Source of the DNA: Shigella phage Ag3
DNA length: 64,000 nucleotides
Strand: one strand, 5' to 3'
Sequence record: FJ373894
Of this stretch, positions 4,887 through 59,542 are shown piece after piece. The position numbers were made by a program, and so were the translations under genes. Below the pieces are notes generated by a model. It did no database searches. It had not been told where the DNA came from and was given only the letters and a program-made list of their open reading frames with translations. Each line of letters opens with the position of its first letter. Positions within the stretch are counted from its first letter, which is position 1.

Positions 4887-5932
4887 ACCACACCTTCCAG
4901 GAACTTAGGATCAACAATCTTGCGGTCAACTGGAGAATGGGTGAGCGCAATGTTCAAACCATGATCCTGAATCCGGTTCATGTTGATGAGCTTATCGTTC
5001 AGTTTGCAGTACAGGCAGTATGCCATTTGCATGATCAAGCCACGATCAGCATCATATTCCTTCAGGTGAGCAACCAAAGTTTCCCACGGGCTACCGATAT
5101 CACAATGATGGAGCACACCAGTGAACAGATTGCGGATATGGTTCTGGTTGGTCACGTTCTTGAAGTGAATCATGGAGTTGATGAACCCAGCTTCTACTTT
5201 GGTGTCCTTCGTGATCTTGCCCAGCTGCTTCTGGCTGACTTCATTGTTGTAGTAATGAAGATTGTTGGAGAAGAGCTTGTACTGGCCGACATCAACATCC
5301 AGCACCTGAGCAATCACTTCCTGAAGAATAGAGAACTCAATGAAGTTGATTGAACTCATCCCCCACAGAACATCCTGTGAGCGGTTGATGACCGTCAGGT
5401 TCAGGCGACCGTCAACGATGGCGAACAACAGAGCCAGGTTACACACCATGTCTTTAGTCTTCGCTTCGCCACTCTCGCTGAACTTCGCCAGGCCAGCATC
5501 TGAATCCAGAGCCGGATCATAGATGGTGAGGTACGCCTGACGGGTGTTTGGGTTCTTGCGCAGGCGGTTGATGACGCTATCCAGCTGGCCATGGGCGTAC
5601 AGACGCGGACCATAAGCGGCTCGCCATGTTACCCCATCATCCGAAAAGTTAGCAGCGCGAGGCAATACGCGTGACAGGAACTTTATGTCGTTGCGGCCTG
5701 ACAACACCCAGAAGGTCTCCCCAATAGCTGCGATAGCCGATGAGTTGCGACCTTCAACGGAGAGCCAGCGGTCACGAATATCGGAAACAGTGATCGTCAC
5801 ACCATCAAGGAATCGGGTGCCGTCCGTGTTGATCTCCGCGTTACCAGGGTCCGACTCAATTCCGTATTCGCGGATAGCCAAGACAGCCTGCTTCAGCATG
5901 TCATTGTTGTTAATTGCTTTGATTTCCATCAA
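4883..5932 (-). CDS. thymidylate synthase-family pyrimidine C5 methylase/hydroxymethylase
   Basis: 349 aa; TS-fold motifs (RQAYLTIYDP, catalytic Cys in KDMVCN, RSQDV...SINF with Asn at the pyrimidine-specificity position); longer than canonical ThyA and Cys-Asn replaces Pro-Cys-His. Confidence 0.75.
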   Translation of the reverse strand: MMEIKAINNNDMLKQAVLAIREYGIESDPGNAEINTDGTRFLDGVTITVSDIRDRWLSVEGRNSSAIAAIGETFWVLSGRNDIKFLSRVLPRAANFSDDGVTWRAAYGPRLYAHGQLDSVINRLRKNPNTRQAYLTIYDPALDSDAGLAKFSESGEAKTKDMVCNLALLFAIVDGRLNLTVINRSQDVLWGMSSINFIEFSILQEVIAQVLDVDVGQYKLFSNNLHYYNNEVSQKQLGKITKDTKVEAGFINSMIHFKNVTNQNHIRNLFTGVLHHCDIGSPWETLVAHLKEYDADRGLIMQMAYCLYCKLNDKLINMNRIQDHGLNIALTHSPVDRKIVDPKFLEGVV

Positions 5933-6603: not shown

Positions 6604-6665
6604 TAAACAAAAGGAGCTGCTATTATAGCAGCCCCTTCATCTATTGAACAGCTTCTGAACTTAAA

Positions 6666-7708: not shown

Positions 7709-8002
7709 TTAACTTTCTACGTCAATATTGAAAACCATTTCCGGCGGCCAACAAGTTGTTAGCTCGACTTTTGCGAACCGTGGTTGGCAGTACGCATCAA
7801 CTGACTCATCAAACAGACAGTGTTCTACATTTGCGACCATCAGATCATCATCCAGCACTTCAACAGAATGGACAATGATCTTGTGGTCATACGTCAGGCA
7901 ACCGTCTAAATGCATGTTGTCGGCGCGGAGGTGTTGCATGATGAAATACTCTATGATCGACTCAAGGACAGTCGTCATCTTCAGATAACGTTTCATACAC
8001 AC
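7709..8002 (-). CDS. hypothetical protein
   Basis: 97-aa ORF, co-oriented, flanked by intergenic AT-rich region. Confidence 0.35.
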   Translation of the reverse strand: MCMKRYLKMTTVLESIIEYFIMQHLRADNMHLDGCLTYDHKIIVHSVEVLDDDLMVANVEHCLFDESVDAYCQPRFAKVELTTCWPPEMVFNIDVES

Positions 8003-8016
8003 CTCTCACAGTGGGG

Positions 8017-8766
8017 TTATTTGGACAGGTAGAAGTTTGGAACTTCAGGGAAATGCTCTGGTAGATATTCCCCCAGAATATCCTGCTTCACCTTCCCTTC
8101 GATATCTTCGCGGATCCGACGAATTACGTCTTCCTGTTGTTCTATCGCCATCACTTCTTCCATAGCGGAGTACAAGTTGTCTAGAATGACACCTACGTAG
8201 TTGTGGATGGCACGACAGGAGTTCTGGTCATACTCCATATCTGGATGAATCGCCAGGTCGACCTGATCACGCCCTACCAGCAGATGCCCAGACACCAGAT
8301 TTATCGGGTATTGGAATACTTCACCAGATTTGACAGCAACCCCGTCGGCTTGCTTCAGCAGGAATTCGGTTTCAGAGAAGCGTTCAAGTAGTTCCGATGG
8401 GAATACCATATCGAGATTCTGACGCTTGCGACTAAAGAAGTACAGACAATGCGCCAGTTTCAGGCATGCATCGGTAGCCATCTTCATGTGTGCTTTAGCG
8501 TGTTCATAACCAGCGATCACATCACGGACATAATCGTACAGGTCGGCATGACCAAAACGGATGTCCTCTTCGAAGCGGATTGCCGCCTCGCTGTCTGATT
8601 TCAAACCCAGCACGTCAAAGATGTTGTGTTCACGGACGGATCTGCCTTTGCGATCAAAGCCCAGAACACAACCGACTTCGAATCCACTCTTTTCAAAATT
8701 TGGGAGTTTCATATCAAGGCGAGCTGGGGTGAATTCCAACCCGAACATACGATAAAATTGTGACAT
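8017..8766 (-). CDS. hypothetical protein
   Basis: 249-aa ORF; ATG at 8764-8766; GC hairpin just upstream. Confidence 0.5.
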   Translation of the reverse strand: MSQFYRMFGLEFTPARLDMKLPNFEKSGFEVGCVLGFDRKGRSVREHNIFDVLGLKSDSEAAIRFEEDIRFGHADLYDYVRDVIAGYEHAKAHMKMATDACLKLAHCLYFFSRKRQNLDMVFPSELLERFSETEFLLKQADGVAVKSGEVFQYPINLVSGHLLVGRDQVDLAIHPDMEYDQNSCRAIHNYVGVILDNLYSAMEEVMAIEQQEDVIRRIREDIEGKVKQDILGEYLPEHFPEVPNFYLSK

Positions 8767-20039: not shown

Positions 20040-20333
20040 TTATGCCTTGCCTTCGTGGAGTTTGATCTGTTCAGTGGTGATGTAATTCTTGATGTTAGCA
20101 ACAAAATCCTGGCGTTTGTCTTCAGGTAATTTGCTGAGGTCTAGAAGGAAGTGGGTACGGTTCACAGTATCCAATGGATCCGTGTAGTTCAACGGGATAG
20201 CCGTGACTTCGCCGCCGTTGTGCCAAGCAGCGGCCACCTTCACGTTGCGCAGAACATTCTCCGCTTCCATTTTGCTGTTGTGTTTGAGCAAGATACCTGG
20301 TTGACCAGGGACCAACAATAACGTCTGGAACAT
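20040..20333 (-). CDS. hypothetical protein between nrdA and nrdB
   Basis: 97-aa ORF; stop abuts nrdB start. Confidence 0.4.
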   Translation of the reverse strand: MFQTLLLVPGQPGILLKHNSKMEAENVLRNVKVAAAWHNGGEVTAIPLNYTDPLDTVNRTHFLLDLSKLPEDKRQDFVANIKNYITTEQIKLHEGKA

Positions 20334-20403
20334 ATAGAACTCCTGATGAATAAGGGGTGATATCTCACCCCTGATGATATAACGGTAGCAGGTTTAGACC
20401 AAC

Positions 20404-22683
20404 TCACACCACACAGGTGTCACAAACTTCTTCAGCCTGTTTCAACTCTTCGTCTTCCTTGGCGTCCTTGTTCGTGTTGTAATACAGAGTCTTACCACCC
20501 CACATATAGAAGGACAGGATATCCTGCATCATCTTGGCGCGAGGGATCTTGCCATCTGGGTACTTCTCTGGGTCATACCACGTGTTGGTACTGATGGACT
20601 GGTCAACCCAGCGCTGGATGACAGCAGCGGTCTTCAGGTACTCAATGCAGTCCAGGTCCCACTTGAGGTCATACAGCGGTCCAAGGGTCTCAACATCCGG
20701 AACAACCTGCTTGTACGTGCCGTCCTTGCTGCCCTTAATGCTCACCAAGCCCTTCGGTGGCTCAATGCCGTTCGTTGCGTTGAGGACTTGTGAGGAGCTT
20801 TCGGTAGGGGCTACTGCCAGCAGGGTGGCATTGCGGATACCATAGGTCTTCAGGTCATCCTTCAGGTCATCCCAGTCCAGCCCATATGCCATGCCTTCCG
20901 GCTTCTTACCATTTGGCAGGATGTCAAGCGGAAGCGGCTGAAGATCGGCGGTGACCTGTCCCATACCATGGATGGTTCCACGTTTGCAAGCGCCGAACTT
21001 CATAGCCAGACGGTTGGATGCCTTGACCAGATAGAAGTGAAGGTGTGCCATCCATGCATCCAGCATCTCGAGGCCAGCTGGTGAGCCGTAGCCCGTGAAG
21101 TTCTTGGCCAAGAAGTGGGCCACGTTCACGATACCAACGCCCAGAGGACGATAGTCTTCAACAGCCTTGCGAGCCTGAATCGCTGGATAGTCCTGATATT
21201 CGAGCAGCATGTCCAGCGCAGACACCAACACGAACGCCACGTCTTCCATTTCGGTCGGGTCTTCGAATGCTGTCAGGTTGAAGGAAGCCAGGGTGCACAG
21301 AGCCACGCGCCCGTTTTCATCGTTGTACTGCTCAAACTCACGGGTCGGCAGGGCGATTTCAAGACACAGGTTGGAGCTGTAGATGGTGTCGAGGTTGAAT
21401 GGGCTGTATTCATTCATGTGATCGACGAATGCGATGTAGATGCGGCCTGTGTCTGAACGCTGGTCTAACAGCATCTGGAACACTTCTTCGGCCTGCAGCT
21501 TCTTAGAACGAACCAGGCCTGCATCGGCGGCCTTGATCATGTTCTCATACAGAGTACGGAACTTGTCAACGTCGGCGAAGTATGCTTCGTACATTTCGCG
21601 GTTGTCTTTCGGGTCGAACAGATACAGAGGCTGCTTGGCAACCAGGCGCTCAAACATCACGCGGTTGATCTGAATACCGTAGTCGATACGGCGTTCGCGG
21701 TTTTCTTCAGTGCCACGGTTATTCTTCAGTACAACGACGTCATCGAACTGGTAATGCCACAGAGGGATGTACGCTGTCGCCGCACCACCACGAATGCCGC
21801 CCTGGGAGCAAGACTTGAGCGCCCCAGTGAGATACTTGATGAATGGGATCAGGCCTGTGTGAACCATCTCTCCGCCGCGAATAGGACTGCCAATCCCACG
21901 GATAGCCCCGACGTCAAAGCCGATACCCGCACGTTTGGACACATAGTCAACGATGGTCTTGGCCGTTGCGTTGATAGAGTCCAGGGTGTCACCAGTTTTG
22001 ATCAGGACACAGGAACTGAACTGACGGGTAGGAGTACGAACACCTGCCATAATCGGGGTGGGAAGACTGAACTTGCCTGTGCTGGCATATTCATAGAACT
22101 TCTTCACCATCTCCAGGCGGCTGTCTTTGTCCCAGTTAGAGAACAACGCCATGGCGATTCCCATGTACATGACCTGTGGGGTTTCGTAGAAGATCTTGCT
22201 GTCTTTCTTGGAACGGTCGCGCAGCAGATACTTCTCTGTCAGCTGGCCCATGGCCGCCCACGTGAAGTTCTTATCGCGTTTGTGGTTAATGACATCGTTC
22301 AGCTCGTTGAACTCTTCTGTCGTGTAGAGATCAAGGAACTCACGATCATACACGCGCTGTTTGATGTTCTTGACGAAGATATCCAGCAGGTGAGGCGGCT
22401 TGTACTGGCCATAGACAGCCTTGCGCAGATCATATGACTTCAGACGAGCAGCCACATACTGGTAATTGGGTTTGTCTACAGAGATCAGTGAAGCCGCAGC
22501 CTGGATGAGGATATCCTGAATGCGATCTGTTCTCATGTTGTCGGTGAACTGAATCTTCGATGCAGCGATCACCTCTGACATTGATACACCAGTCAGTCCG
22601 TCACATGCGCGGTCTACGACTTCGTGTGGTTTCTCAATATCAAAGGGGACAGAAGATCCGTCCCGCTTAATGACGTTAATCAT
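20404..22683 (-). CDS. nrdA: ribonucleotide reductase class Ia alpha subunit
   Basis: 759 aa; N-terminal ATP-cone (VIKRDGSSVPFD), catalytic core, C-terminal Cys pair (CDTC). Confidence 0.95.
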   Translation of the reverse strand: MINVIKRDGSSVPFDIEKPHEVVDRACDGLTGVSMSEVIAASKIQFTDNMRTDRIQDILIQAAASLISVDKPNYQYVAARLKSYDLRKAVYGQYKPPHLLDIFVKNIKQRVYDREFLDLYTTEEFNELNDVINHKRDKNFTWAAMGQLTEKYLLRDRSKKDSKIFYETPQVMYMGIAMALFSNWDKDSRLEMVKKFYEYASTGKFSLPTPIMAGVRTPTRQFSSCVLIKTGDTLDSINATAKTIVDYVSKRAGIGFDVGAIRGIGSPIRGGEMVHTGLIPFIKYLTGALKSCSQGGIRGGAATAYIPLWHYQFDDVVVLKNNRGTEENRERRIDYGIQINRVMFERLVAKQPLYLFDPKDNREMYEAYFADVDKFRTLYENMIKAADAGLVRSKKLQAEEVFQMLLDQRSDTGRIYIAFVDHMNEYSPFNLDTIYSSNLCLEIALPTREFEQYNDENGRVALCTLASFNLTAFEDPTEMEDVAFVLVSALDMLLEYQDYPAIQARKAVEDYRPLGVGIVNVAHFLAKNFTGYGSPAGLEMLDAWMAHLHFYLVKASNRLAMKFGACKRGTIHGMGQVTADLQPLPLDILPNGKKPEGMAYGLDWDDLKDDLKTYGIRNATLLAVAPTESSSQVLNATNGIEPPKGLVSIKGSKDGTYKQVVPDVETLGPLYDLKWDLDCIEYLKTAAVIQRWVDQSISTNTWYDPEKYPDGKIPRAKMMQDILSFYMWGGKTLYYNTNKDAKEDEELKQAEEVCDTCVV

Positions 22684-22722
22684 AGCGATCCTCGGTTTGT
22701 GTTATAAGCAGGTTTTATTATA

Positions 22723-23641: not shown

Positions 23642-23662
23642 CTAATACTAAAGGACAAACAT

Positions 23663-24355
23663 CTATTGATTTACAAAACCTAACCATCCCGCGTCTTCTT
23701 TTGGGTTCCAACCATCTTTGAATTTATTGACCATAGTCCTCAATGAATTGTTCGGAGAGACGAAACCGAAATATCTACCGAGTCTGCAATATCCTTCTTG
23801 TTTTAATTTCCATTTCTCATAGTATTTATCGGCATCTTTCCATATCTTTAACGTGGTGGCGTTGGAAGCTGGGCTTTCCCAAGGAGGAACGCCTTTCATT
23901 TTGGAGTACATGTCTTTCATTTTATCCGGATAAAGTTTATGCATATTCTTCATTCTTTCCGAAGATTCTTTCCTTATATTTGGATTCTCTGAATTCAAAC
24001 GCTTCATCCTTTCCGATCTCATTTTTCTTAATTCAGGATCTTCTTTGCACCTCAGTTTGTGGGCAATTGAGGACTTCCTGCGAAGCCAACCATGAGTTTT
24101 GTTGTTTCTTCCGTTGTGTGGGTTGTAACCACCCATCATGTTGGCGGCGAATATCAATTTCCTGTTGTCTGGGTGCATCTTTACGAGCAAGAGATGAGCA
24201 ACATAATGTTCTTCCGGCGTCAGGCGAACAAGGTTGTCGGGGTTGTCCGAACCACCCATGCATTTCGGCACAACATGATGCAATTCGGAATATCCTTCTA
24301 TGGTTCTTTGTTTGGCTTTGTTGATTAGTGACTGATAGATATTGGCGTAGTTCAT
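23663..24355 (-). CDS. HNH homing-type endonuclease
   Basis: 230 aa; HNH motif HHVVPKCMGGSDNPDNLVRLTPEEH; basic repetitive C-terminal DNA-binding-like region. Confidence 0.8.
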   Translation of the reverse strand: MNYANIYQSLINKAKQRTIEGYSELHHVVPKCMGGSDNPDNLVRLTPEEHYVAHLLLVKMHPDNRKLIFAANMMGGYNPHNGRNNKTHGWLRRKSSIAHKLRCKEDPELRKMRSERMKRLNSENPNIRKESSERMKNMHKLYPDKMKDMYSKMKGVPPWESPASNATTLKIWKDADKYYEKWKLKQEGYCRLGRYFGFVSPNNSLRTMVNKFKDGWNPKEDAGWLGFVNQ

Positions 24356-24418
24356 AGAGCACCTCCATATGCTCTAATTAAGGCGATAACCCAGCATACC
24401 CGAGGGGTGGATAAAGAA

Positions 24419-25844: not shown

Positions 25845-26333
25845 TTAAGCCAGTTTACCCACCAGGGTCTGAACGTCTTTGGCGGTCAGTTTACCCATTT
25901 TGACGTACTGAGCTTTTGCTTCACCACCAGCCGCTTTCACGATGTCTTCGTTTGCGTAGCCTTTCTTAGGGAAGACCATCACAGAGAAGGAACCGTTGTT
26001 CAGTGGGTTCAGCTGGATGCGACCTTTACCGACTACGATGGTGCCGTAAGTTTCGGTGTTCGCTTCGACAACGTGGATGTCGCGGCCCAGGTCTTTCAGC
26101 ATGCCAACTTTGTCGGCAGTCTTAGCAACCACAGCTTTGTCAACCACAACCTGCTCTACCAGGGTGAAGCCGTTGGTCGCTTTCACTTTGCCGTTCAGCA
26201 GGTTCATGAAGGAAGTTTTGCCACCAGTGAAGCCAGCTGCCTGAGCGATGCGGAACATTTCAACTTTAGCAACTTCGGTGTTCAGTTCGAAAGAGATGGT
26301 GCCGTTGGTGATCAGAGTTTTGGTAGTAGCCAT
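25845..26333 (-). CDS. hypothetical protein
   Basis: ORF 25845..26369; start at ATG 26331-26333 (MATTKTL) with GAGGA RBS; promoter-like element and hairpin upstream. Confidence 0.5.
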   Translation of the reverse strand: MATTKTLITNGTISFELNTEVAKVEMFRIAQAAGFTGGKTSFMNLLNGKVKATNGFTLVEQVVVDKAVVAKTADKVGMLKDLGRDIHVVEANTETYGTIVVGKGRIQLNPLNNGSFSVMVFPKKGYANEDIVKAAGGEAKAQYVKMGKLTAKDVQTLVGKLA

Positions 26334-26396
26334 GATGTAATTCCTCATAATGTAGTTGGTTCGTTTCACTTTTCATTCGGCGGTGTGTTGCCGCCC

Positions 26397-26426
26397 TATG
26401 TGAACTATAATAGTGCATCATTATTG
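26397..26426 (-). promoter_or_regulatory. early-promoter-like element (CTTTAC-N18-TATTAT) followed by stem-loop
   Basis: minus-strand -35-like CTTTAC and -10-like TATTAT upstream of gene 25845..26333, followed by GGCGG/CCGCC hairpin at 26369-26385. Confidence 0.35.
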
Positions 26427-26480
26427 AAGAGTAAAGTCTTTTTCAATAAATTTTTAAAATAATTTTGAAGTATTTTAAAA

Positions 26481-28812: not shown

Positions 28813-28862
28813 GATTTGTTTCCTCAGAAAAAGAAATCCCCCTGTATTTAGGGGGATTGTAA

Positions 28863-32551: not shown

Positions 32552-32827
32552 TTAACGGCGGAAAGGGCGGTTTGCGTTTTCGCGGTTAGACCAATTCTTT
32601 TCAGCCCGAGCGATAGCCGCTGGACTCCATTCGCGTTCCCACTCTTTGTCTACTTCAGCCTGGTTGGCAGGCTCTACCATTTCAACACCAGGGAAGTCGC
32701 GTGACATGATTTCGCGCAGCTGGGCAGCTGGGGCAGTCTGGGCGTGGATCAATTCTTCGCCGTCGTAAACCTTGGCCATCAGGTATTTCTGGCCGTGGCG
32801 GATATATGCGTCGAGGATAATTTTCAT
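32552..32827 (-). CDS. hypothetical protein
   Basis: ORF 32552..32848 (TTG); probable ATG start at 32825-32827 with AGGAA RBS. Confidence 0.45.
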   Translation of the reverse strand: MKIILDAYIRHGQKYLMAKVYDGEELIHAQTAPAAQLREIMSRDFPGVEMVEPANQAEVDKEWEREWSPAAIARAEKNWSNRENANRPFRR

Positions 32828-32901
32828 GGTGTAGTTCCTGCTTTTCAAGTTGGTGTCGTACTGCTTATGGAATGAAGTATAGGGAAGGATATTGAAGAAG
32901 T

Positions 32902-32921
32902 AAAGGGGCGTTTGCCCCTTT
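32902..32921 (-). terminator. terminator hairpin
   Basis: AAAGGGGC-GTTT-GCCCCTTT 8-bp stem with flanking T-run. Confidence 0.55.
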
Positions 32922-32934
32922 TATTGAATTATTT

Positions 32935-33573
32935 TTAAGGCGTTGGGTTCACAATCGGAATGTGGAATCTGATTCCTGCGATGATATCCTTCAGCTGTGG
33001 CTTCCAGCCATCTACCAAACGGGGTAGAGCGATAGCACCAGGCTGAACTAAAATGATGTCGCTGCCTGTGATATTGTGCTGAGGGAACTGGGCAAGGTAC
33101 TGCTCCATGGTGACACCCTCATCAATCAGAACCGCACCGACGTCAGACGATGCGTAGGTTGCACCCAGACCGTCAACGCCCCACGCCAAGATGCCCCAGT
33201 CAGGGATGTTGGCTTCAGATGTGATGGTGAACCCAAACACAGTGTTCAGGGAGGTGAAGGAATAGACATCGTGAGTGATGTCATACACCAGATACCCCTT
33301 GGCCAGCATATCGGCAAAGATCGCGTCCGTATCCCCCGCCGCTGGAGTTGGCACAGAAAACAGCAGCTCGCCCTCAGGAGGGGCAGGATACGTGCCGAGG
33401 GCATAGAGGCACCATGCATCAATGCACTTCTTAATGAACGCCTCGGGTGCGACATAATCGGCAAGGCGCACAGTCCCCGAGTACTCGGATACGATGATGC
33501 CTTCCTTCGTGCCCTGTAGAGCGATGAAGACCAAGATATGTTCATATCCGGTCTGAGATGGAGTGATGTTCAT
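32935..33573 (-). CDS. hypothetical protein
   Basis: ORF 32935..33669, start at internal Met (MNITPSQ) overlapping upstream stop. Confidence 0.45.
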   Translation of the reverse strand: MNITPSQTGYEHILVFIALQGTKEGIIVSEYSGTVRLADYVAPEAFIKKCIDAWCLYALGTYPAPPEGELLFSVPTPAAGDTDAIFADMLAKGYLVYDITHDVYSFTSLNTVFGFTITSEANIPDWGILAWGVDGLGATYASSDVGAVLIDEGVTMEQYLAQFPQHNITGSDIILVQPGAIALPRLVDGWKPQLKDIIAGIRFHIPIVNPTP

Positions 33574-34187
33574 TATCTTGTCCTCTTCAGTTTCTCTATC
33601 GTGCGCTTGTTCATGGCGATCACCCGAGGATCTACCTCGGAGATGGTCCGGCCTTTGAAGGACACACATTTCTGAAGATATTTAGCTTTCTTCACGACGT
33701 CAGCGGCATAAGCGTTCGATGCGGGATTACGGGCGAAGCCAGCATTGTAAGAGGAGAGGGATTTGCGTACATTCTGCTTGTGATAGGTCAGCCAGAACTG
33801 CATCTCATCGAGGGCGGCTTGCGCGGCATATTCTTGGTCGGTCAGCAACTTTATGGCGACATTGGCATAGCACTTGCGATTCTTACAACCTTCGCGATCA
33901 CCAACTGTCTTCACCTTGTTCTGAAAGGCTCCCATGTTGGCCGCCTTGAGACCGTAGCGCATTGACACTACATCTTCACCAGCACGGCTCTCTCGCCAAG
34001 ATATGGCAGCCAGGGTGTAACCAAGATCTTGTGTCTTGCCTATGTGGTAGGCAGTTGCCAGCGTATTAAGTTGTTGCTCAGAGAAATCATAAACACATTG
34101 ACTTGTATTTTGGGAAGCGTGCACATTCCCGCTGGCAATGGTAAAGGTCACGGACAAGGCCATGGCCTTCAACGTTGTCATCGTCAT
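33573..34187 (-). CDS. secreted protein with signal peptide (possible lytic transglycosylase-like)
   Basis: 204 aa; N-terminal signal peptide MTMTTLKAMALSVTFTIASGNVHA; ISWRESR motif reminiscent of SLT catalytic Glu-Ser; weak. Confidence 0.4.
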   Translation of the reverse strand: MTMTTLKAMALSVTFTIASGNVHASQNTSQCVYDFSEQQLNTLATAYHIGKTQDLGYTLAAISWRESRAGEDVVSMRYGLKAANMGAFQNKVKTVGDREGCKNRKCYANVAIKLLTDQEYAAQAALDEMQFWLTYHKQNVRKSLSSYNAGFARNPASNAYAADVVKKAKYLQKCVSFKGRTISEVDPRVIAMNKRTIEKLKRTR

Positions 34188-34286
34188 GATGGCGTTCCTT
34201 ATGTGGATTGTCGACTTGCAGCTCGCTTGAGCCTCCTGACAGGGGTTAAAAGATAAAGGGCACGTGGTATTTAGTGCCCTTTGGCC

Positions 34287-43362: not shown

Positions 43363-44046
43363 TTACACCTCCACCGCGTGAGACTTCAGGAGTTCATCAA
43401 TCGCTTTCTGTCCCATATAAGAGAATGGGGTGCGCTGGTAGAATGCCCACAGAACCAACTGAACGACAGCGCGGGAACGGGTTTCGGCTCGCATCACCAG
43501 GTCGCTGAAATGAGGAGACTGCGCCGTCCATTGGATCTCTTCGCCCAGGTCTTGATTACAGGTCACGGAGATGCGGAACTTGTTGCACAGATTGTCGACT
43601 TCTTTGTACGCATCGGTAGACACCCGAAGTTGGTCTGCATGCGCCCATGGTGTCGTGACGATTCTTTCACCCATCACTTTATCAGAGATAAACCAATCAA
43701 TGGATTCAACAAACTTGCCGAAATGGTCGATGCGATAAATGCAGTCTCCCCCTTCCATAGAACGCATGGCATGATAGCGAGCGTCGATTTCGTTGTTGTG
43801 CATCGCGTTGAAGTCGATGAACACGCGACGCGCCAACACAACATCTTCCGGCTCCAGAGGGATGTATTCCCCTTCGTTGCTAGACCTCCGGATGTTCGGA
43901 TAATGTAGAATGCCGCTTAAATGCCCAGTGCAATATACATAACGAGGTCCAACACCCCCGACACGAGCATGAGCGACATAGGATGGTTCTGTGAATCGCA
44001 AGTGGCCTTGATCGGCACCGACGATAATAGAATAAAGTTTTTCCAT
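43363..44046 (-). CDS. hypothetical protein
   Basis: ORF 43363..44061; ATG 44044-44046 preceded by conserved AGACTATATC motif and 5-prime hairpin. Confidence 0.45.
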   Translation of the reverse strand: MEKLYSIIVGADQGHLRFTEPSYVAHARVGGVGPRYVYCTGHLSGILHYPNIRRSSNEGEYIPLEPEDVVLARRVFIDFNAMHNNEIDARYHAMRSMEGGDCIYRIDHFGKFVESIDWFISDKVMGERIVTTPWAHADQLRVSTDAYKEVDNLCNKFRISVTCNQDLGEEIQWTAQSPHFSDLVMRAETRSRAVVQLVLWAFYQRTPFSYMGQKAIDELLKSHAVEV

Positions 44047-44068
44047 GATATAGTCTCTCAAATGAAAA

Positions 44069-44092
44069 GGGCGACCTTATGATAAGTCGCCC
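44069..44092 (-). promoter_or_regulatory. leader stem-loop upstream of gene 43363..44046
   Basis: GGGCGAC-cttatgataa-GTCGCCC 7-bp stem. Confidence 0.45.
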
Positions 44093-44103
44093 GAGGTTAT
44101 TGA

Positions 44104-46061: not shown

Positions 46062-46140
46062 GGTGATTCTCCTTATTTCATTGGATGAAATGATAGGTGG
46101 CTCACCATGTTGAGTAAAGGGTTTCAATAAACTATCGTAT

Positions 46141-46599
46141 TCAGAAGCGAGCATCAGACACGGTTCTGAACTTCACACCCTTGAACTGCTTGGCGACCTT
46201 GACGAACTCCATCGCTGGCATGTCCACTTTGTAGACCTTGATGCGCTGGCGGTCATCCATGTTCAGAGCGGCCACATAGCGGTGTGAGCCGTCGACCACG
46301 TAATTGTCAGAAGACACCCAAACTCGACCCATGGGCTTCTTGTTCCGGATGTTCTTCATGATCTTCCAGACCTTCATCTTGTTGATTTCGTTCTGAGTGA
46401 GACGGAGGGATTTGATTGGAACCTGGCCAGCGTCGATAGTGATGCCAAGTTCCTCCAGGTAGTCGTGGAACGCCTGCTGCTTGTCATCGTCAATCTGCGG
46501 CATAGAAGAACGAGAAAGCCCGAGGTTTCCAACAGGAATCCTCAGGCCGTTGATAATGTTCAACCAGTCTATGAAGGAAGACATGAACATGAGATTCAC
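46141..46599 (-). CDS. ParB/sulfiredoxin-like domain protein
   Basis: 152 aa; DGSHRY motif resembling ParB N-terminal domain DGxHR. Confidence 0.4.
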   Translation of the reverse strand: MNLMFMSSFIDWLNIINGLRIPVGNLGLSRSSMPQIDDDKQQAFHDYLEELGITIDAGQVPIKSLRLTQNEINKMKVWKIMKNIRNKKPMGRVWVSSDNYVVDGSHRYVAALNMDDRQRIKVYKVDMPAMEFVKVAKQFKGVKFRTVSDARF

Positions 46600-47071: not shown

Positions 47072-47442
47072 AACGTACCCCCGACAGAGATCAAGAACTC
47101 TTCTTCAATGGTCGTGACAGGGCGGCGGTTGCGGGTTTCGATCATGAAGCCCCAGCCGCCGTCGGCGACGTTGCCAAAGGTCTTGACGCCAAAGGTCTTC
47201 GTCCTGTTGGAGCAGGCATAGAAGTCCAGGATGAACGGACTGCCCTGATTGTCGATCCCACGGTTTACGCCGTCCGATACGCAGCGCTCAATCATCTTCC
47301 CGTTCTTATACAGAACGAGGTCTTGGCCATACGCCTTGAAAGCATAAACGCCGTTGGTGGACACTCCGGTAATCACAGGAGGAGCGGAAACAACAGCGAA
47401 GGAAGCGCCCAGCAGGGCAACAGCGAGGATTAACTTTTTCAT
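47068..47442 (-). CDS. secreted protein with signal peptide
   Basis: ORF 47068..47463, start at ATG 47440-47442 (MKKLILAVALLGASFAVVSA); preceded by AGACTATATC motif and hairpin. Confidence 0.5.
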   Translation of the reverse strand: MKKLILAVALLGASFAVVSAPPVITGVSTNGVYAFKAYGQDLVLYKNGKMIERCVSDGVNRGIDNQGSPFILDFYACSNRTKTFGVKTFGNVADGGWGFMIETRNRRPVTTIEEEFLISVGGTL

Positions 47443-47466
47443 GATATAGTCTCTTGATTTCAAATG

Positions 47467-47488
47467 GGCGAGGCAATCATACCTCGCC
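47467..47488 (-). promoter_or_regulatory. leader stem-loop upstream of gene 47068..47442
   Basis: GGCGAGG-caatcata-CCTCGCC 7-bp stem. Confidence 0.45.
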
Positions 47489-47501
47489 GGAGTTTATAGA
47501 A

Positions 47502-47741
47502 TTAACTGATATGCTTCAGAAGAGCGAAGAGGATCGCGGCCTTGGCCTTTACCTTTCCCACGACGCCTGTCTCGACATCAACTTCTTCAGCAACCCACTC
47601 TTTGCCCTTCTTGCTGATGATAACGTCACGGCGCTGTGCGTAGACTTCTTTGGTCGCATACACACGGCGGAACCCCTTTGCGCGCAGCAAGCCCCAATTG
47701 CGATCAATCTCTACTGAAGTTTCGACCATTTTGTTCTTCAT
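47502..47741 (-). CDS. hypothetical basic protein
   Basis: 79 aa; preceded by early promoter, 5-prime hairpin and AGGACTATATC motif. Confidence 0.5.
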   Translation of the reverse strand: MKNKMVETSVEIDRNWGLLRAKGFRRVYATKEVYAQRRDVIISKKGKEWVAEEVDVETGVVGKVKAKAAILFALLKHIS

Positions 47742-47763
47742 GATATAGTCCTGCTTTCAAACA

Positions 47764-47782
47764 GGCGGGAACTATTCCCGCC
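47764..47782 (-). promoter_or_regulatory. 5-prime leader stem-loop downstream of early promoter
   Basis: GGCGGGA-actat-TCCCGCC between -10 box and RBS of gene 47502..47741. Confidence 0.5.
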
Positions 47783-47793
47783 CCAGAATTTGA

Positions 47794-47822
47794 ATTATAC
47801 GTGAGTTATTGAAGAAGTAAAC
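47794..47822 (-). promoter_or_regulatory. T4 early-type promoter (GTTTAC-N17-TATAAT)
   Basis: on minus strand GTTTAC (47817-47822) and TATAAT (47794-47799) separated by 17 nt, followed by 7-bp stem-loop and RBS of gene 47502..47741. Confidence 0.5.
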
Positions 47823-47837
47823 CGTTATTCAATATTC

Positions 47838-48122
47838 TTAACTTCTCTCCCAGATGTCTTCCAGGACATCACGCATATTTCTGAGTTCCGGAGTATCACC
47901 GAAGAAAGTTTCCATTTCCCCCTCTTCACCACCCGCCAACAACCAGAATGAGCTGTCAAGGTCTTCTGGGTCTTCTTCGTGGAAGAAACCCTGCTCAACC
48001 ATTTTGATGATAGAAGGTTCGGCGCGCTTGAAGTCCTTTTCTGTCACCACATCAGAGTAGTCGAACTGGTTGTCATAAGACATGATGGAAATGATCTTAT
48101 CAAATATTTCTTTGCTGGTCAT
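47838..48122 (-). CDS. hypothetical acidic protein
   Basis: 94 aa; preceded by hairpin and AGGACTATATC motif. Confidence 0.5.
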   Translation of the reverse strand: MTSKEIFDKIISIMSYDNQFDYSDVVTEKDFKRAEPSIIKMVEQGFFHEEDPEDLDSSFWLLAGGEEGEMETFFGDTPELRNMRDVLEDIWERS

Positions 48123-48142
48123 GATATAGTCCTGATTTCATC

Positions 48143-48161
48143 GGCCTTCACAATGAAGGCC
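48143..48161 (-). promoter_or_regulatory. leader stem-loop upstream of gene 47838..48122
   Basis: GGCCTTCA-caa-TGAAGGCC 8-bp stem followed by GATGAAATCAGGACTATATC-ATG. Confidence 0.5.
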
Positions 48162-48196
48162 GTCTATTGAATAATAGCGGGTGTTTATCTAAAGTA

Positions 48197-48220
48197 AAGC
48201 CCCAACAAATGTTGGGGCTT
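48197..48220 (-). terminator. terminator hairpin downstream of ACP-like gene
   Basis: AAGCCCCAAC-AAAT-GTTGGGGCTT 10-bp stem. Confidence 0.55.
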
Positions 48221-48223
48221 CTG

Positions 48224-51360: not shown

Positions 51361-53004
51361 TCAGATTTGTGAGGCCAGTTCCGCCACCAGAGGAGCGGCG
51401 CGGACACGCGCATCTTCCAGAGTTTGAGTGTTGAAGAACTTGCCGTCACGATACACCAGCTGGTGCTGGTTGTCGGCGTCTTGTACCTGATCAAAGGTGA
51501 TACCGTCAACCAACACTAGTTTACCCTGAGAGTCTTTAATGACTTTAAGGAAACCACGCGCAGACTTTTTAGTCCCGCCTTTATCGGTCTTCGGCTCTTT
51601 GAAGATCTCACGGAATTCACCGTTCACCTTACCAGCCGTTGCTTTCACCGCCGTGCCAGTACTGTCACGGGTGTTCATCTGGTAGGTGTAGGAACCGATA
51701 CCGAACACCACGTTGATGGAAGCGAAGTTCCGGCCAGCCAGACGGCTAAAGATCTGGTCTTCACGCGCCAGGGTGATGGAGTCGCCGTAAATCAGACCGA
51801 TGTGTTCGTCCAACAGGAAGTGGCCAGTTTCGGTCTGGGTCCCGCCAAAGATCTCCCACAGGCGCTGGATAGAGCCGACTGCTTCAGAACGGCTGATGAT
51901 ATTACGGTCGTCTGCCATCAGAGAGTTGATCGTGCCTTCGCCTGTAATCAGGTGATAGGTGTTCGTCTCTTCGATGTGAATGACTTCGGTGCTGCTAGAC
52001 ACGCCGCTGATGTTCAGCGTGGCGCGGTCTTTGAACCCCTCAATTCGGTAGCCGCCGACGATATGAACTGGGTCGCCCGAGTCAGGGCGGATCACGACTT
52101 TACCGTTACGCGCCATGATAATATCTTTCAGGCGCGGCAGATAGTCGTCGATGACCTGCCAGTAATCCCACGCATCAGACACGATGCTGACGATGCCATC
52201 AGGATACACGTCCTGCACCAGGCGGCGGAAGGTTTCGAATTCGCCATCCTTCGTACCCATACACATCACGGCGTGTTCGGTAGCCGCAACAGAACCAGCA
52301 ACGACATAGTCTTCGTCGATGTCTGCGCCATAATACTCTTCAACGAACGTGCGCCCACCGTCGCAGATATCATCGACCACCACCAGATAACGGTCTTTGA
52401 TCAGTTCAGGGTTTGTAATGCTCACCCCAATGATCTCACCAGTCTTGGTGTCACGGTTCTTGTGTCCGTAGACAACAGGAACGCCATCCAATGACAGGCT
52501 GAGGGCTTCGGTCTTCTTCGCCGCGCCGCCGTCAGGAGCTACCAGCACAGCGTTGTTCCCACGGATGAACCAGCCCAGATACTGCCGCACGATGTAATCT
52601 TGCGGGACAACATGGACGTTGTTGATCAGAGAAGTCACAACATGGCTGTGAGGGTCTTTGATCGCCACACGGTCAAAGTTCATGCTATTGATGAACTCAG
52701 CCGCCCACTTCACGGACAGAGGCTCTCCGAAGTCGCAATGGCGGTCCTGGCGAGCATACGGGAAGTAAGGGATATACGCATGGAAGGTCGTCAGACGGTC
52801 CACGTTACCCAGGCCGCGCACGGCGTTAACCAGCAGTGCCAGCTCAACGAAGTCGGCTGATGATTTGATGTGGGCATCAATCACCACGTTCTGGACGTGG
52901 CCGACAGGGATACCAGCCTTTTGGATCTTGATATGTTCCTCACCACCTGGGAAGGTGAAGTGTTTGTAGAACACATCTTGGTCGTTCAATTTCAAACGAA
53001 ACAT
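51361..53004 (-). CDS. fusion protein: ribose-phosphate pyrophosphokinase-like N-terminus joined to nicotinamide phosphoribosyltransferase-like C-terminus
   Basis: 547 aa; residues ~1-225 carry Prs motifs (FPGGE, PYFPYARQDR, VLVAPDGGAAKK, VVVDDICDGGRT); residues ~226-547 match the NAMPT C-terminal half (YYG..VAATEHA, VSIVSDAWDYW, RPDSGDP). Confidence 0.75.
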   Translation of the reverse strand: MFRLKLNDQDVFYKHFTFPGGEEHIKIQKAGIPVGHVQNVVIDAHIKSSADFVELALLVNAVRGLGNVDRLTTFHAYIPYFPYARQDRHCDFGEPLSVKWAAEFINSMNFDRVAIKDPHSHVVTSLINNVHVVPQDYIVRQYLGWFIRGNNAVLVAPDGGAAKKTEALSLSLDGVPVVYGHKNRDTKTGEIIGVSITNPELIKDRYLVVVDDICDGGRTFVEEYYGADIDEDYVVAGSVAATEHAVMCMGTKDGEFETFRRLVQDVYPDGIVSIVSDAWDYWQVIDDYLPRLKDIIMARNGKVVIRPDSGDPVHIVGGYRIEGFKDRATLNISGVSSSTEVIHIEETNTYHLITGEGTINSLMADDRNIISRSEAVGSIQRLWEIFGGTQTETGHFLLDEHIGLIYGDSITLAREDQIFSRLAGRNFASINVVFGIGSYTYQMNTRDSTGTAVKATAGKVNGEFREIFKEPKTDKGGTKKSARGFLKVIKDSQGKLVLVDGITFDQVQDADNQHQLVYRDGKFFNTQTLEDARVRAAPLVAELASQI

Positions 53005-54767: not shown

Positions 54768-56786
54768 TTAGAACACAACTTTCACAGTGCGGTTGAACGA
54801 GCCGCTCACCTTCACGAACACGTGGTTGCGTTGGGTGGTAGAGAAGCCCAGACCGGACAGCTGCTCAGTGCTTGGCTGTACTTTAATCTTACCGCCTAAC
54901 ATTTCAAAAACCTTGCGGTGTTTATCAAGTTCCGGCTTCAGATATTCGTTGTAGAAGCCACGAGTGCCGACAGGGTTAGCACAACCTTCCAGGATGAAGA
55001 ACACGTGCTTGTTGCCCGTCTGCTCGCCGTCCCAATGGTTTGGTGAGTTCAGAACCAGCTGCACTTTCTGGAATACCGAGGTCTTGATGCCCCAGATTTC
55101 CTGCGAGCGTTCGTCGTCCTTCAGGGTAGAACGGATGTCTACCACTTGTCCAGCGCGGACATCAATCACAACAGCCAGAGTGCGATCTTTGTGCTTCAGG
55201 CCAGGATGCGAAAAACGCTTGGTCTGGCCTTTGTATTCAACTTCGATTTCGAAGCCCATATCACAGGTTTCACGCTGGCTGAAGTTAGTGACATAGAACT
55301 CGTACAGACCATCACGCAGCTTGCGTTCATCGCTGAAGAAGATGTTCTCCACCGGGCGGCGGTTGGGGTCAATACCGTCCATACCGTTCATGTCGATATC
55401 CAGGGTTGCGCCAGTTGCCGAGCGACGGTTGTGGTAATACACATGATTGTGTAAAGGATCGTTCAGGCTCAGATCCAGGTCATCGTTGTTATGCCACGCC
55501 AGGGACACACGGAGGAAACCGTCAACGTTGCCGCCTGCCGTCTTCACGCGCTCTTTGATGGAGTCGGCCACTTCACCGTTGTATGACCAGCTGAAGCCGT
55601 TGTTCCACTTGAACAGGTTAGGAGCGCCTGCGGTAGCCGGGGCGATCAGGGACATCAGGTTGCCAGTGTGAGAGTTTTCAACCAGCACTTCCAGGGAATG
55701 CGCCTTTGGCAACACGTTGGTCAGGAAGTCGTCGATGGTGATTTCTTCAACCTTGTCCAGGGACTTGGTCGGAGTCTTCACTTCAGACGCCAGCTGAGCA
55801 AACGGGTCCATCTTCTTCTGCGCTGCCAGGTCGGCAAACAAAACGTTGTTGATGGTCAGGTCGTCATATACAGCATAACGGCGGCCAAGGGATTCGGTCA
55901 GACCCAGCGCTTCGACTTCTTTCTGTGCGTTTTCAATCATGGACTTCGTGACCAGTGCAGTCGGGCGCTTATAGTTCTGAGGAGCGACTTTGGCTTCAAA
56001 GGACTTCACGGCGGTTTCCAGATCCCGACCTTCGTTGAGGTCTACCAACAGAGAGCCAATCACGGTATTACGGATGCCGTGAGGGGTGTGTCCGTTTGCA
56101 CGGTAGCCAGTACGCCAAGCCCACAGAGCGCGTTTCTCTTCTGCAGTTTGTTCGTACAGGGTCTTGCTCGTCACGAACGCCTGCACAGCAGCTTTGTGCT
56201 CTTCACCACGATACAGAGAATTCTGATCAATCAGTTCCAGAACGATTTCGGCCGATTCCAGAGACAGTTCACGCAGGCCGCGCTCAAACACTTCAATCGC
56301 CTGGCGGATTTCACCCTTCTTAGAAGCGATGACATCAGCCCGCAGAACATAGCTGGGCAGCAGGTCGGTGTGGAAGTGGTTGTAGGTGCGGACATTACCG
56401 TCTTTCATTTCGTGATTCGACTCAACACCGACTTTCTTGGTATCGTTGAAGTACACGTCGACGATTGCGTGTTGCTTGACATACGCAGACAGCGCCGCAG
56501 CGACAACGTCGTATTCGTTACCCAGCTGAATGTTATCCCAGATAGAGATCACGTTCAGGTCGGCGTCGATGGTCACCACACCGCCGATGTTACGGATGAA
56601 TTGTTTGCAGCAGGTGCAGTCGTGCTCGGTACGCTCACGGTAAAGCGGGTTGGTGCCAGCAGGGAAAGAAGACAGATACAGATCCCACAGAGCATCTTTA
56701 TCGATGTTGGTCATGAACAGACCAGTTGCTGACATGGCCAGCACGTTGTTATTAACAGCTACTGCGAAGGGCTTAAATTCTGACAT
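54768..56786 (-). CDS. large hypothetical protein
   Basis: 672 aa; no Walker or polymerase motifs recognised. Confidence 0.5.
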   Translation of the reverse strand: MSEFKPFAVAVNNNVLAMSATGLFMTNIDKDALWDLYLSSFPAGTNPLYRERTEHDCTCCKQFIRNIGGVVTIDADLNVISIWDNIQLGNEYDVVAAALSAYVKQHAIVDVYFNDTKKVGVESNHEMKDGNVRTYNHFHTDLLPSYVLRADVIASKKGEIRQAIEVFERGLRELSLESAEIVLELIDQNSLYRGEEHKAAVQAFVTSKTLYEQTAEEKRALWAWRTGYRANGHTPHGIRNTVIGSLLVDLNEGRDLETAVKSFEAKVAPQNYKRPTALVTKSMIENAQKEVEALGLTESLGRRYAVYDDLTINNVLFADLAAQKKMDPFAQLASEVKTPTKSLDKVEEITIDDFLTNVLPKAHSLEVLVENSHTGNLMSLIAPATAGAPNLFKWNNGFSWSYNGEVADSIKERVKTAGGNVDGFLRVSLAWHNNDDLDLSLNDPLHNHVYYHNRRSATGATLDIDMNGMDGIDPNRRPVENIFFSDERKLRDGLYEFYVTNFSQRETCDMGFEIEVEYKGQTKRFSHPGLKHKDRTLAVVIDVRAGQVVDIRSTLKDDERSQEIWGIKTSVFQKVQLVLNSPNHWDGEQTGNKHVFFILEGCANPVGTRGFYNEYLKPELDKHRKVFEMLGGKIKVQPSTEQLSGLGFSTTQRNHVFVKVSGSFNRTVKVVF

Positions 56787-56901
56787 GATGTAGTCTTCCT
56801 GTTTCAGTTCAAATGTGCGCCCCGTTTGCCAGGGCGCTTCGTTTAAGTGAGGTCAATAATACGTTGAAAAAAGTTATTGAAGAATGAAGTAAAGGGAATC
56901 T

Positions 56902-58122: not shown

Positions 58123-58191
58123 GGTATCCTCTTAGAATACGAAAAACAGAGGCCATTATAGCCTCTGTTGTTTAGTGAATAACTGTATATC

Positions 58192-59077: not shown

Positions 59078-59542
59078 TTATTCGCTTTTGGCCTTTGTAG
59101 GCCGGATAATGTATTTTGGGACCAGCTTCCATTCAGGAACCTGATCGTGTTTAACCACTTTAATGCGTGACATATCGGCGGCTTCGGTGACCTGCTCGGG
59201 ATGAATGACCTTCACCATGTTCCACTGCTCAAGCAGCTTGATGATGCGGTTCATCCTCAGGACATCTTCGCGGTTAAACCCGTTGTAATGTCCGTCCAGC
59301 ATAAACAGATGCTTGAAGTGGACGATATAATACTTGCCATACTTATGAAGAATATGACAAGTCTGATACAGAGTATTCGGCTCTTGGCGCGTGTTTACCC
59401 CAATTCGGCTCAGTGTTTCCTTGATCCCCAGGAATATTCCTGGCCGATCTTGGTTCAATTGAACTTCAACCATACAATCAACGATGCTGGCCTCATCGTT
59501 GACGGCTGAAATGTTCAATATGTCTAGCGTATTGCGCGCCAT
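59078..59542 (-). CDS. regA: translational repressor RegA
   Basis: 154 aa; YQTCHILHKYGKYYIVHFK and C-terminal EWKLVPKYIIRP match T4 RegA; position after gene 62 as in T4. Confidence 0.85.
   Translation of the reverse strand: MARNTLDILNISAVNDEASIVDCMVEVQLNQDRPGIFLGIKETLSRIGVNTRQEPNTLYQTCHILHKYGKYYIVHFKHLFMLDGHYNGFNREDVLRMNRIIKLLEQWNMVKVIHPEQVTEAADMSRIKVVKHDQVPEWKLVPKYIIRPTKAKSE

Follow-up and report, generated by a model that had tools for sequence, protein, structure and literature searches.

Several T4-type phages carry a small composite element known as the promoter-early stem-loop (PeSL), described in RB49/phi1, T4/PST, and KVP40/nt-1 (Arbiol et al. 2010, PMC2839356; Comeau et al. 2014, PMC4122927). 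A PeSL consists of an AT-rich region, a sigma-70-like promoter, and a GC stem-loop in one of five positions, followed by a Shine-Dalgarno (SD) sequence and an ATG. PeSLs are enriched in hyperplastic regions by variable ORFans, have demonstrated promoter and terminator activity, and are known to yield mini-circles (PMC2839356, PMC4122927). In RB49/phi1, PeSL stem-loops terminated transcription efficiently in a reporter assay (PMC2839356). Here we analyze a similar element in Shigella phage ΦSboM-AG3 (AG3), an Agtrevirus of the family Ackermannviridae (ViI-like phages). It lies on the minus strand at positions 47739-47840 of the window, that is, the whole stretch of 64,000 nucleotides (nt) under analysis, which is AG3 genome 32001-96000. 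The offset of 32,000 between window and genome is based on all promoter and terminator sequences of AG3 Table S2, which match the window exactly (PMC3121705).

Read from 47840 to 47739, the minus strand is TAA-GAATATTGAATAACG-GTTTAC-N17-TATAAT-TCAAATTCTG-GGGCGGGAA-TAG-TTCCCGCC-TGTTTGAAAGCAGGACTATATC-ATG. The element is found between the stop of a 94-amino-acid (aa) open reading frame (ORF; orf139, 47838..48122) and the ATG of a 79-aa ORF (orf138, 47502..47741). An AT-rich, UP-element-like stretch, GAATATTGAATAACG (47823..47837), exists between the orf139 stop and the -35 box; A+T makes up 74% of the 19 nt that run from TAA through to the -35 (47840-47822) versus 49% window-wide, and Erwinia phage Bue1 has a close counterpart, TTTATTGATAACGG. 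The -35 box, GTTTACT (47816..47822), can be read as GTTTAC with N17 or as TTTACT with N16. It is followed by a spacer (47800..47815) with the block TCTTCAATAA, seen again in paralogous elements and in other genera, and by the -10 box TATAAT (47794..47799). The promoter matches the sigma-70 consensus at 10 of 12 positions and is joint best in 20 kilobases (kb). From standard sigma-70 geometry, transcription is predicted to start at 47787..47790, 4-7 nt past the -10. Next comes the GC stem-loop GGGCGGGAA-TAG-TTCCCGCCT (47763..47783) with nine pairs, and then the leader or translation-initiation box TTGAAAGCAGGACTATATCATG (47739..47760), which includes the SD AGGA (47749-47752) and the ATG (47739-47741) in the arrangement AGGA-N7-ATG. 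The gene predicted to be driven by the element, orf138, is conserved (PHROG 804, E = 1e-29). It is present in 17 of the 20 relative layouts; in KN2-1 the ORF caller overlooked it, and the 79-aa ORF that Bue1 has at this place is divergent.

All four structural parts of a PeSL thus exist in AG3 in the same order, and the stem-loop belongs to the "downstream of the -10" subclass. The "just upstream of promoter" (48199-48218, 32.9 kb, and 18.7 kb) and the -10-overlapping subclasses are found among the remaining AG3 copies, and AG3 hairpins with TATAAT in the loop mirror the commonest subclass of RB49/phi1. A mis-spaced copy (56787-56901) resembles "degraded" PeSLs (PMC4122927). The AG3 copy also adjoins an ORFan, and cassettes of its relatives are flanked by direct element repeats. 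The differences are as follows. AG3 belongs to another phage family. Its copies and those of its relatives are conserved patchily over 15-75 nt, whereas PeSLs are conserved over about 100 bp. The AG3 stem-loop has a poor U-tract and is like a 5' leader, whereas the PeSL stem-loop is an effective terminator. The association with insertions and deletions (indels) is strong at only one AG3 locus, ACP-orf138-orf137. The original prediction for this DNA had likened the element to the PeSLs of T4-like phages. It had read the layout exactly, and the 7-bp stem that it described is present and extends to 9 bp. The architecture, the ORFan neighbor, and the local plasticity stand; the phage family, two of the "similar units", and probably the terminator role do not. 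In its architecture and its apparent role in evolution, the AG3 element is a PeSL-like composite in a different phage family, not a proven PeSL.

We favor, with some reserve, the explanation that the element is a composite early-gene control unit, made of a sigma-70 promoter, a 5' stem-loop, and a ribosome-binding site (RBS) box, whose repeats serve as recombination patches. As the comparative evidence suggests, the host sigma-70 RNA polymerase would start at a strong promoter of the T4 early type (AT-rich, GTTTACT, 16/17-nt spacer, TATAAT). The transcript, beginning about 4-7 nt past the -10, would fold at once into a GC-rich 5'-terminal stem-loop. By analogy with RNase E protection in E. coli, this structure would mainly protect the mRNA, and it would be at most a leaky attenuator of read-through from orf139. 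The conserved box UUGAAAG-cAGGA-CUAUAUC-AUG would be the RBS for orf138. About 9-14 related promoter/hairpin/leader units in the window share blocks of 15-75 nt, and these blocks may act as short homologies for the repeated insertion, replacement, and deletion of small genes at ACP-orf138-orf137, where indels and repeats are observed.

Parts of the element have been annotated before. AG3 Table S1 gives orf138 as 79502-79741, orf139 as 79838-80122, and orf141 as the ACP gene (PMC3121705). In Table S2, Porf138 (79794..79821) is among nine putative early promoters, and Torf139 (79759..79783, gggcgggaatagttcccgcctgttt, -15.1 kcal/mol) is among forty rho-independent terminators (Anany et al. 2011, PMC3121705). 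These are the same nucleotides as window 47794-47821, the promoter, and window 47759-47783, the hairpin. Porf138 as printed has 29 letters for a 28-nt range, with an extra leading "t" (TTttac...); the genome reads GGTTTACTTC. The promoters were found by consensus search and the terminators by mfold, in separate tables, and the paper is silent on the position of the "terminator" downstream of the promoter, on a family of units, and on the variable genes that they border (PMC3121705). The CBA120 paper reported that early promoters of ViI-like phages were not identifiable by informatics (Kutter et al. 2011, PMC3184105), and the LIMEstone paper gave five "early" promoters found by T4 similarity (PMC3296691). 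Among the papers found that mention PeSLs, none concerns Ackermannviridae. Novelty is therefore limited, as promoter and hairpin were both tabulated in 2011 and the PeSL concept dates from 2010-2014. What is new here is the family-wide conserved early promoter/leader unit in Ackermannviridae, the re-reading of "Torf139" as a leader hairpin, and the documentation of an insertion hotspot.

Conservation of the promoter and leader box

GTTTAC-N17-TATAAT with at most one mismatch occurs at 2 sites in the window versus 0.09 expected, so the motif put forward by the original prediction is above chance. The related pattern TTTACT-N16/17-TAnnnT is found at 6 sites versus 0.34 expected (48198, 47821, 46118, 32904, 26435, and 18674). 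All six are on the coding strand and intergenic, with an ATG 29-74 nt downstream. The leader box TGAAA..ACTATATCATG (TGAAA..(A/G)ACTA(T/C)A(T/C)CATG) is found at 7 gene starts versus 0.01 expected. These promoter and leader patterns were refined post hoc, with a core already given by the published T4/PST PeSL consensus TTTACW-N17-TAYWAT. The hexamers of the element fit this consensus. A generic sigma-70 scan of the window was not enriched (18 versus 16 +/- 3.9). The generic sigma-70 and terminator scans were rejected as evidence for a family because their counts are at chance, and motif-specific tests were used instead. The weight is on the specific motif only and not on generic sigma-70 likeness.

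Early promoters of T4 are likewise strong and used by the host sigma-70; their -35 is of the TTTAC type, their -10 is TATAAT, and an AT-rich region resembling a UP element is present (Hinton 2010, PMC2988021). They also share with the AG3 element extra conserved positions beyond the canonical elements, as that review states with reference to Liebig and Ruger 1989. Unlike them, the copy upstream of orf138 lacks a TGn extended -10, and its spacer block TCTTCAATAA has no described T4 counterpart that could be verified. ViI-like phages further differ from T4 in lacking Alt, ModA, MotA, and AsiA (Kutter et al. 2011, PMC3184105).

For a comparative footprint, an alignment was made of 13 elements that lie downstream of the ACP gene in Kuttervirus, Agtrevirus, Limestonevirus, and unclassified contigs. 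All of them have the same -35 TTTAC, the same -10 block TATTATT.AAT, and a spacer of the same length, but at least four unrelated spacer sequences are found among them. In AG3, the element at this place is a second composite, element B (48123..48223, upstream of orf139). A 16-nt deletion has dropped one TTTAC from it and put another at N16 from the -10 (TTTACT-N16-TATTAT). Since the -35, the -10, and the spacer length stay fixed while the spacer sequence drifts, a real promoter is indicated. Such invariance is the footprint expected of a functional sigma-70 promoter; the activity itself is a predicted one. Similarly, at the promoter upstream of the i-spanin gene (46090..46118) the hexamers are invariant and the spacer is variable in eight relatives.

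The unit type found upstream of orf138 also exists downstream of the ACP gene in three other genera. The version of the orf138 copy, GTTTACTTCTTCAATAA..TAtaAT..GCGGGAA-loop-TCCCGCC..TTGAAAG.AGG..CTATA..ATG, is found there in Taipeivirus and Nezavisimistyvirus, whose ACP proteins lie outside the yield of the search for close ACP relatives. Promoter spacer sequence is normally not conserved. The spacer block TTTACTTCTTCAATAA, however, is identical in AG3, Taipeivirus, and Nezavisimistyvirus, and CTTCAATA occurs seven times on the coding strand of the window, five of them intergenic, versus an expectation of 1.8 for the two strands together. In this element type the block TTCAATAA is part of the spacer (within TTTACTTCTTCAATAA); in the other type it directly follows the -10 (TATTATTCAATAA). 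Shared ancestry, the binding of some factor, or a weak promoter that overlaps could account for the conservation of the spacer block.

Three other lines were dropped. An overlapping second promoter (TTGAAT/TTGAAA with CAATAA as the -10, hexamers that the AG3 authors used for Porf100) has a poor -10. A phage-encoded RNA polymerase reading these promoters was considered because relatives label the homologue of 54768-56786 (minus strand, 672 aa) "DNA-directed RNA polymerase"; the label has no Pfam support, as the protein matches no Pfam family. Finally, an exact 16-mer scan of IMG/VR gave 120 matches, nearly all by chance in unrelated contigs, and anchoring on ACP proteins was used instead.

The hairpin downstream of the -10 box

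In every element type, the hairpin starts 7-10 nt past the -10, within a few nt of the predicted transcript start. The 9-bp stem upstream of orf138 starts 10 nt past the -10, at about +4 to +7 of the predicted transcript. The arms differ by element type: CTGGCGAAC/GTTCACCAG, CTGGCTAAC/GTTGGTCAG, GGGCGGGAA/TTCCCGCC, and GGCCTTCA/TGAAGGCC. In the copy upstream of orf138, the stem extends from 7 to 9 bp through a G·U pair and then GGCGGGAA/TTCCCGCC, and an outer helix UCAAAU/GUUUGA is possible around the GC stem (47788-47793 with 47757-47762). The GC hairpin alone is worth -13 to -15 kcal/mol and the leader fold -18.6 kcal/mol (z = -2.96), with none of 200 shuffles as stable. An Rfam scan of the leader gave only sub-threshold noise and no known RNA family. 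The hairpin is conserved in three genera, where changes are single and pair-compatible only. For the related hairpin upstream of orf137, 128 of 128 stem cells are paired across 16 variants; there are two full compensatory GC to AU changes and G·U pairs on the sense strand, and the observed score was reached in 11 of 500 shuffles.

The tail of a rho-independent terminator should be rich in U, and hairpins of the present class differ from gene-end terminators of the same genomes in this respect. The mean number of T in the 8 nt after the stem is 2.5 for hairpins that follow a -10 and 5.4 for gene-end terminators (Mann-Whitney p about 7e-5, indicative only since the samples are related). The tail upstream of orf138, UGUUUGAA, has 4 T in 8 nt, below both the threshold of the terminator scan and the gene-end mean; the 2011 paper accepted it as a terminator. 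The terminator scan of the window does not call this hairpin. Orthologues have UGAUUG and GAUUG as tails, so it is not the U-tract that is conserved, but the UUGAAAG after the stem. Given the poor U-tract and the position near the transcript start, a 5' leader stem-loop is therefore likelier than an efficient terminator. To judge from its position and tail, the most likely role of the hairpin is that of a 5'-terminal, mRNA-stabilizing leader stem-loop, and at best that of a leaky attenuator. This reading departs from the 2011 annotation and from the terminator role of the PeSL stem-loop, which is doubtful for this copy.

In E. coli, 5' stem-loops protect mRNA against RNase E (e.g., in the 5' untranslated region of ompA). 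The AG3 leader is similar to these in that a stable hairpin stands within a few nt of the predicted 5' end and leads into an A/U-rich single strand and then the SD. It differs in that the AG3 5' end is a predicted one and in that part of the segment before the SD could be tied up in the outer helix.

When orthologous or duplicated copies are compared, some hairpin loops are also seen to be exactly reverse-complemented (TATGATTA to TAATCATA; GTTT to AAAC). These sites are L132 at about 5600-5660 versus ChubbyThor (L003) at 20890-20939, and the loop of the ACP terminator in L004 and in L002 (4289-4361/4645-4717). Loop inversions of this kind would be expected if the inverted arms of a quasi-palindrome undergo template switching or recombine with each other.

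Gene replacement at the ACP-orf138-orf137 locus

The gene followed by the element, orf139, encodes a 94-aa acidic ORFan. A tblastn search of 50,697 phage records found no match to it, and neither PHROG nor Pfam has a family for it. Its sole match among 5.8 billion protein clusters is itself (Shigella phage Ag3, 100% identity), and AG3 Table S1 likewise lists it without a homologue (PMC3121705). The association of the element with an ORFan, part of the original prediction, is thus a true one. Foreign composition was considered for orf139 and set aside, since a GC content of 44.9% (z = -1.8, mildly AT-rich, with normal GC3) is not diagnostic.

Nearest to AG3 by megablast are the Agtrevirus phages ChubbyThor, P46FS4, and EspM4VN (92-96% identity). 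Across 20 genomes, the place of orf139 between the ACP gene and orf138 (slot 1) is empty in 11 and otherwise holds one of four unrelated ORF families. A second slot, before orf137, is empty or holds denV or a 168-aa ORF. The flanked ORFs vary in presence and absence, the polymorphism that the original prediction had proposed to look for across related phages. One family, F8, looks like an old resident, with 48-68% identity across three genera.

Repeated element sequence brackets the variable genes. In pertopsoe and L132, a 74-aa ORF exists between two 73-nt terminator-plus-promoter copies (79% identity). In ChubbyThor, the 168-aa ORF exists between two 50-nt hairpin-plus-leader units (86% identity), and the L132 cassette is also bracketed by 50-nt direct repeats, as in ChubbyThor. 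In AG3, orf139 and the element downstream of it lie between two 30-nt leader-box repeats with 381-nt spacing, one arm at the leader box 47739..47760 and the other at 48111-48140. Direct repeats in this arrangement would permit recombination into deletions and mini-circles. The blocks of similarity between copies are 16-30 nt long within AG3 and 50-73 nt in the relatives. Compared with ChubbyThor, window 47761-48190 is replaced by 67 nt; one breakpoint (47761) coincides with the leader box and the other (48190) with the terminator/-35 junction. When element B is aligned with the resident element of the relatives, the match runs up to TATTATTCAATA and is followed by divergence. The cassettes of families F9 and F13 share this left junction, as both leave the resident element just after TATTATTCAATA.

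Six of the 16 indel events relative to the two closest relatives, ChubbyThor and P46FS4, fall in 42.8-48.2 kb, so the label of a hyperplastic region is a fair one. These data show a replacement hotspot on repeated regulatory sequence, not cassettes moving among sites. From the earlier proposal of recombination cassettes that shuttle small genes, local ORF replacement is retained; shuttling between sites is not, with slot ORFs in one slot only in the 387 kb examined. ChubbyThor also carries free-standing homing-endonuclease genes (NUMOD3 and HNH; L003 18812-19670 and L140 26805-27548) at points that are empty in AG3, 46147-46169 and 22681-22715. One insertion point is 7 nt from the promoter-bearing intergenic region 46062-46140.

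Several observations weigh against a composite unit whose repeats promote recombination. An out-of-sample test against ChubbyThor and P46FS4 drew on the left 27 kb of the window, from which the hypothesis had not been formed. In neither phage do the promoter elements at 18.6 and 26.4 kb have an adjacent indel, and the DNA that borders the whole-gene indels at 7736-8080, 20042-20340, and 23643-24374 is ordinary intergenic sequence without an element. Window-wide, about 16 indel events touch about 4-5 of 9 element-bearing intergenic regions versus about 10 of 41 others, a weak excess that is not significant. None of the slot ORFs was found at a second site in the 387 kb examined, and homing endonucleases nearby in relatives could also drive local exchange. 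Searches of the literature for transcriptomes or start-site maps of Ackermannviridae yielded nothing relevant, and neither mapped ends of transcripts (5' or 3') nor reporter or half-life measurements were found for any phage of the family. The hairpin upstream of orf138 has no double compensatory change of its own, only conservation and one-sided changes, in an alignment that mis-registers the Erwinia copies; support is therefore taken from conservation and from the paralogous hairpin upstream of orf137. Finally, the U-tract UGUUUG of the AG3 copy is the best of its class, so some termination is possible, in line with the 2011 authors.

A rival account is independent punctuation, in which a routine sigma-70 promoter stands next to a routine hairpin, copies are alike from functional constraint, and genes turn over by illegitimate recombination or by homing endonucleases such as those inserted at 46147 and 22681 in ChubbyThor. 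The separate tabulation of Porf138 and Torf139 in 2011, the generic sigma-70 scan at chance, the stable contexts at 18.6 and 26.4 kb, the many indels without elements, and the absence of slot ORFs at a second site are in its favor, and whole-gene indels end in intergenic DNA regardless. The copies, however, are alike beyond the hexamers, with TTTACTTCTTCAATAA in the spacer and a leader box 16-22 nt long. Moreover, the pertopsoe/L132 and ChubbyThor/L132 cassettes are bracketed by 73-nt and 50-nt direct element repeats, two unrelated cassettes have the same left junction, and one slot has received four unrelated ORF families. We regard independent punctuation as a genuine but lesser possibility. 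It is unlikely, in turn, that the hairpin is chiefly an efficient intrinsic terminator or attenuator of orf139 transcription, placed after its own promoter incidentally. Such a role would agree with its annotation as a rho-independent terminator of -15.1 kcal/mol, with the efficient termination by RB49/phi1 PeSL stem-loops (PMC2839356), with the lack of another terminator between orf139 and orf138, and with the UGUUUG after the AG3 hairpin, with which an upstream A-rich stretch can pair. A terminator here would, however, also stop transcripts of its own promoter 20 nt upstream, and it would have to work with only 4 T in 8 nt, a number that the terminator scan does not accept. In orthologues, with UGAUUG and GAUUG, the conserved part is UUGAAAG, and the class as a whole is sharply unlike gene-end terminators (2.5 versus 5.4 T).

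It is very improbable that the hairpin and the UUGAAAG..ACUAUAUCAUG box form an operator for a phage post-transcriptional regulator such as RegA (59078-59542), by which early genes would be co-regulated. RegA is present (Pfam PF01818, E = 2e-34), T4 RegA binds sites overlapping the AUG of early mRNAs, and the leader box spans the AUG and is common to about 7-9 genes. The AG3 homologues of the classic T4 RegA targets (genes 44, 62, 45, and regA), however, do not have the box, and the box appears unlike the A/U-rich T4 RegA consensus. The "RegB endoribonuclease" label that relatives give to 33573-34187 (minus strand) has no Pfam support either, as Pfam gives only a sub-threshold lytic-transglycosylase (SLT) match. 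A shared strong RBS or common cassette descent is a simpler account of the box. Beyond the composite control unit that we favor, a bolder claim may be made: that TTTACT(TCTTCAATAA)-N-TAtaaT units with a 5' hairpin and the UUGAAAG..ACUAUAUCAUG leader are both the early promoter/leader class of ViI-like phages and portable, PeSL-style ORFan modules, possibly moved via excised circles. On this claim, the conserved spacer block and leader box could further be binding sites for a phage or host factor. We consider this combined claim rather doubtful.

Related elements in the window and significance

AG3 has genes for replication and late transcription of the T4-like kind; its RegA is confirmed, and a gp55 homologue is annotated. 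Its family is nevertheless separate from Straboviridae. The other promoter and leader elements of its window, all on the minus strand, are more or less complete. Element B consists of the terminator hairpin of the ACP gene (48199-48218), a -35 TTTACT (48193-48198), a -10 TATTAT (48171-48176), a leader hairpin (48143-48161), and a leader box (48120-48140); a hairpin of it is Torf141 in AG3 Table S2. Element C (47443..47501) is hairpin-only, without a promoter; its hairpin (47467-47488, loop TATGATT) is Torf138 and is followed by a leader box (47440-47462). Its position is the slot for denV or the 168-aa ORF in relatives. Element D (44047..44103) likewise has no promoter and consists of a hairpin with a good U-tract (44069-44092, Torf131) and a leader box (44044-44055). 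Of the similar units that had been predicted before the small ORFs starting at 48122, 47442, 44046, and 26333, the first and the last are complete, with terminator, promoter, leader hairpin, and RBS box; the units at 47442 and 44046 have only a hairpin and an RBS box.

The copy at 26407..26435 (TTTACTCTTCAATAA..TATTAT) has an AT-rich upstream region, much stronger than that upstream of orf138, together with a leader hairpin and a terminator ahead of the promoter. In AG3 Table S2, Porf100 overlaps this copy and Torf101 is upstream of it. In the 162-aa gene that follows, the called start (26333) is preceded at a distance of five codons by an in-frame ATG (within 26333-26348), which has the leader-box-like AACTACATTATG before it; the called start has the better SD, GAGG. 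The promoter at 46090..46118 mentioned above (TTTACT-N17-TATCAT) has no leader hairpin. Another paralogous promoter, TTTACTTCTTCAATA..TATACT (32876..32904), abuts a terminator hairpin, and the leader box beyond it (32825-32847) is the right edge of a gene replacement. The promoter at 18646..18674 (TTTACT-N17-TATACT) abuts terminator Torf088 and has a leader box at 18593-18614. In the degenerate copy at 56787..56901 (TTTACTTCATTCTTCAATAAC), extra bases mis-space the -35 and the -10; the leader hairpin Torf160 and a leader box follow.

An exact TATAAT is found in the hairpin loop at 6610-6638, 11657-11674, 58145-58169, and 373-401 on the minus strand. Four such hairpins, all on the coding strand, compare with 0.18 expected and a maximum of 2 in 200 shuffles. 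Three of them are "terminators" of the AG3 paper, and convincing -35 boxes are mostly missing. Two intergenic hairpins of the minus strand (28813-28862 and 34188-34286) have the T4-late-promoter-like CTAAATAC in or near the loop; they read TCCCCCTAAATACAGGGGGA (Torf105 of the AG3 paper) and GGGCACTAAATACCACGTGCCC. Late-promoter motifs may be embedded in terminator hairpins too.

A further difference from relatives is found at 52340-52347 (ORF 51361-53004, minus strand), where AG3 is without 864 nt that are present in ChubbyThor and P46FS4. The deletion has an 8-nt overlap (microhomology). In the nicotinamide phosphoribosyltransferase gene it takes away the 5' part, and in the ribose-phosphate pyrophosphokinase gene the 3' part. 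The remaining 547-aa ORF looks like an in-frame Prs::NadV fusion.

ViI-like phages are widely used in biocontrol and phage therapy, and the first genome papers called the start of their early transcription unresolved. The conserved promoter/hairpin/leader unit provides concrete, testable candidates for it. The slot by the element is a natural, tolerated insertion site with a predicted promoter and RBS, which is useful for the engineering of reporters or payloads. If the units are also recombination patches, they would explain how small genes are swapped at fixed hotspots in otherwise collinear genomes. If this is true, PeSL-type modular shuffling is not restricted to T4-type phages.

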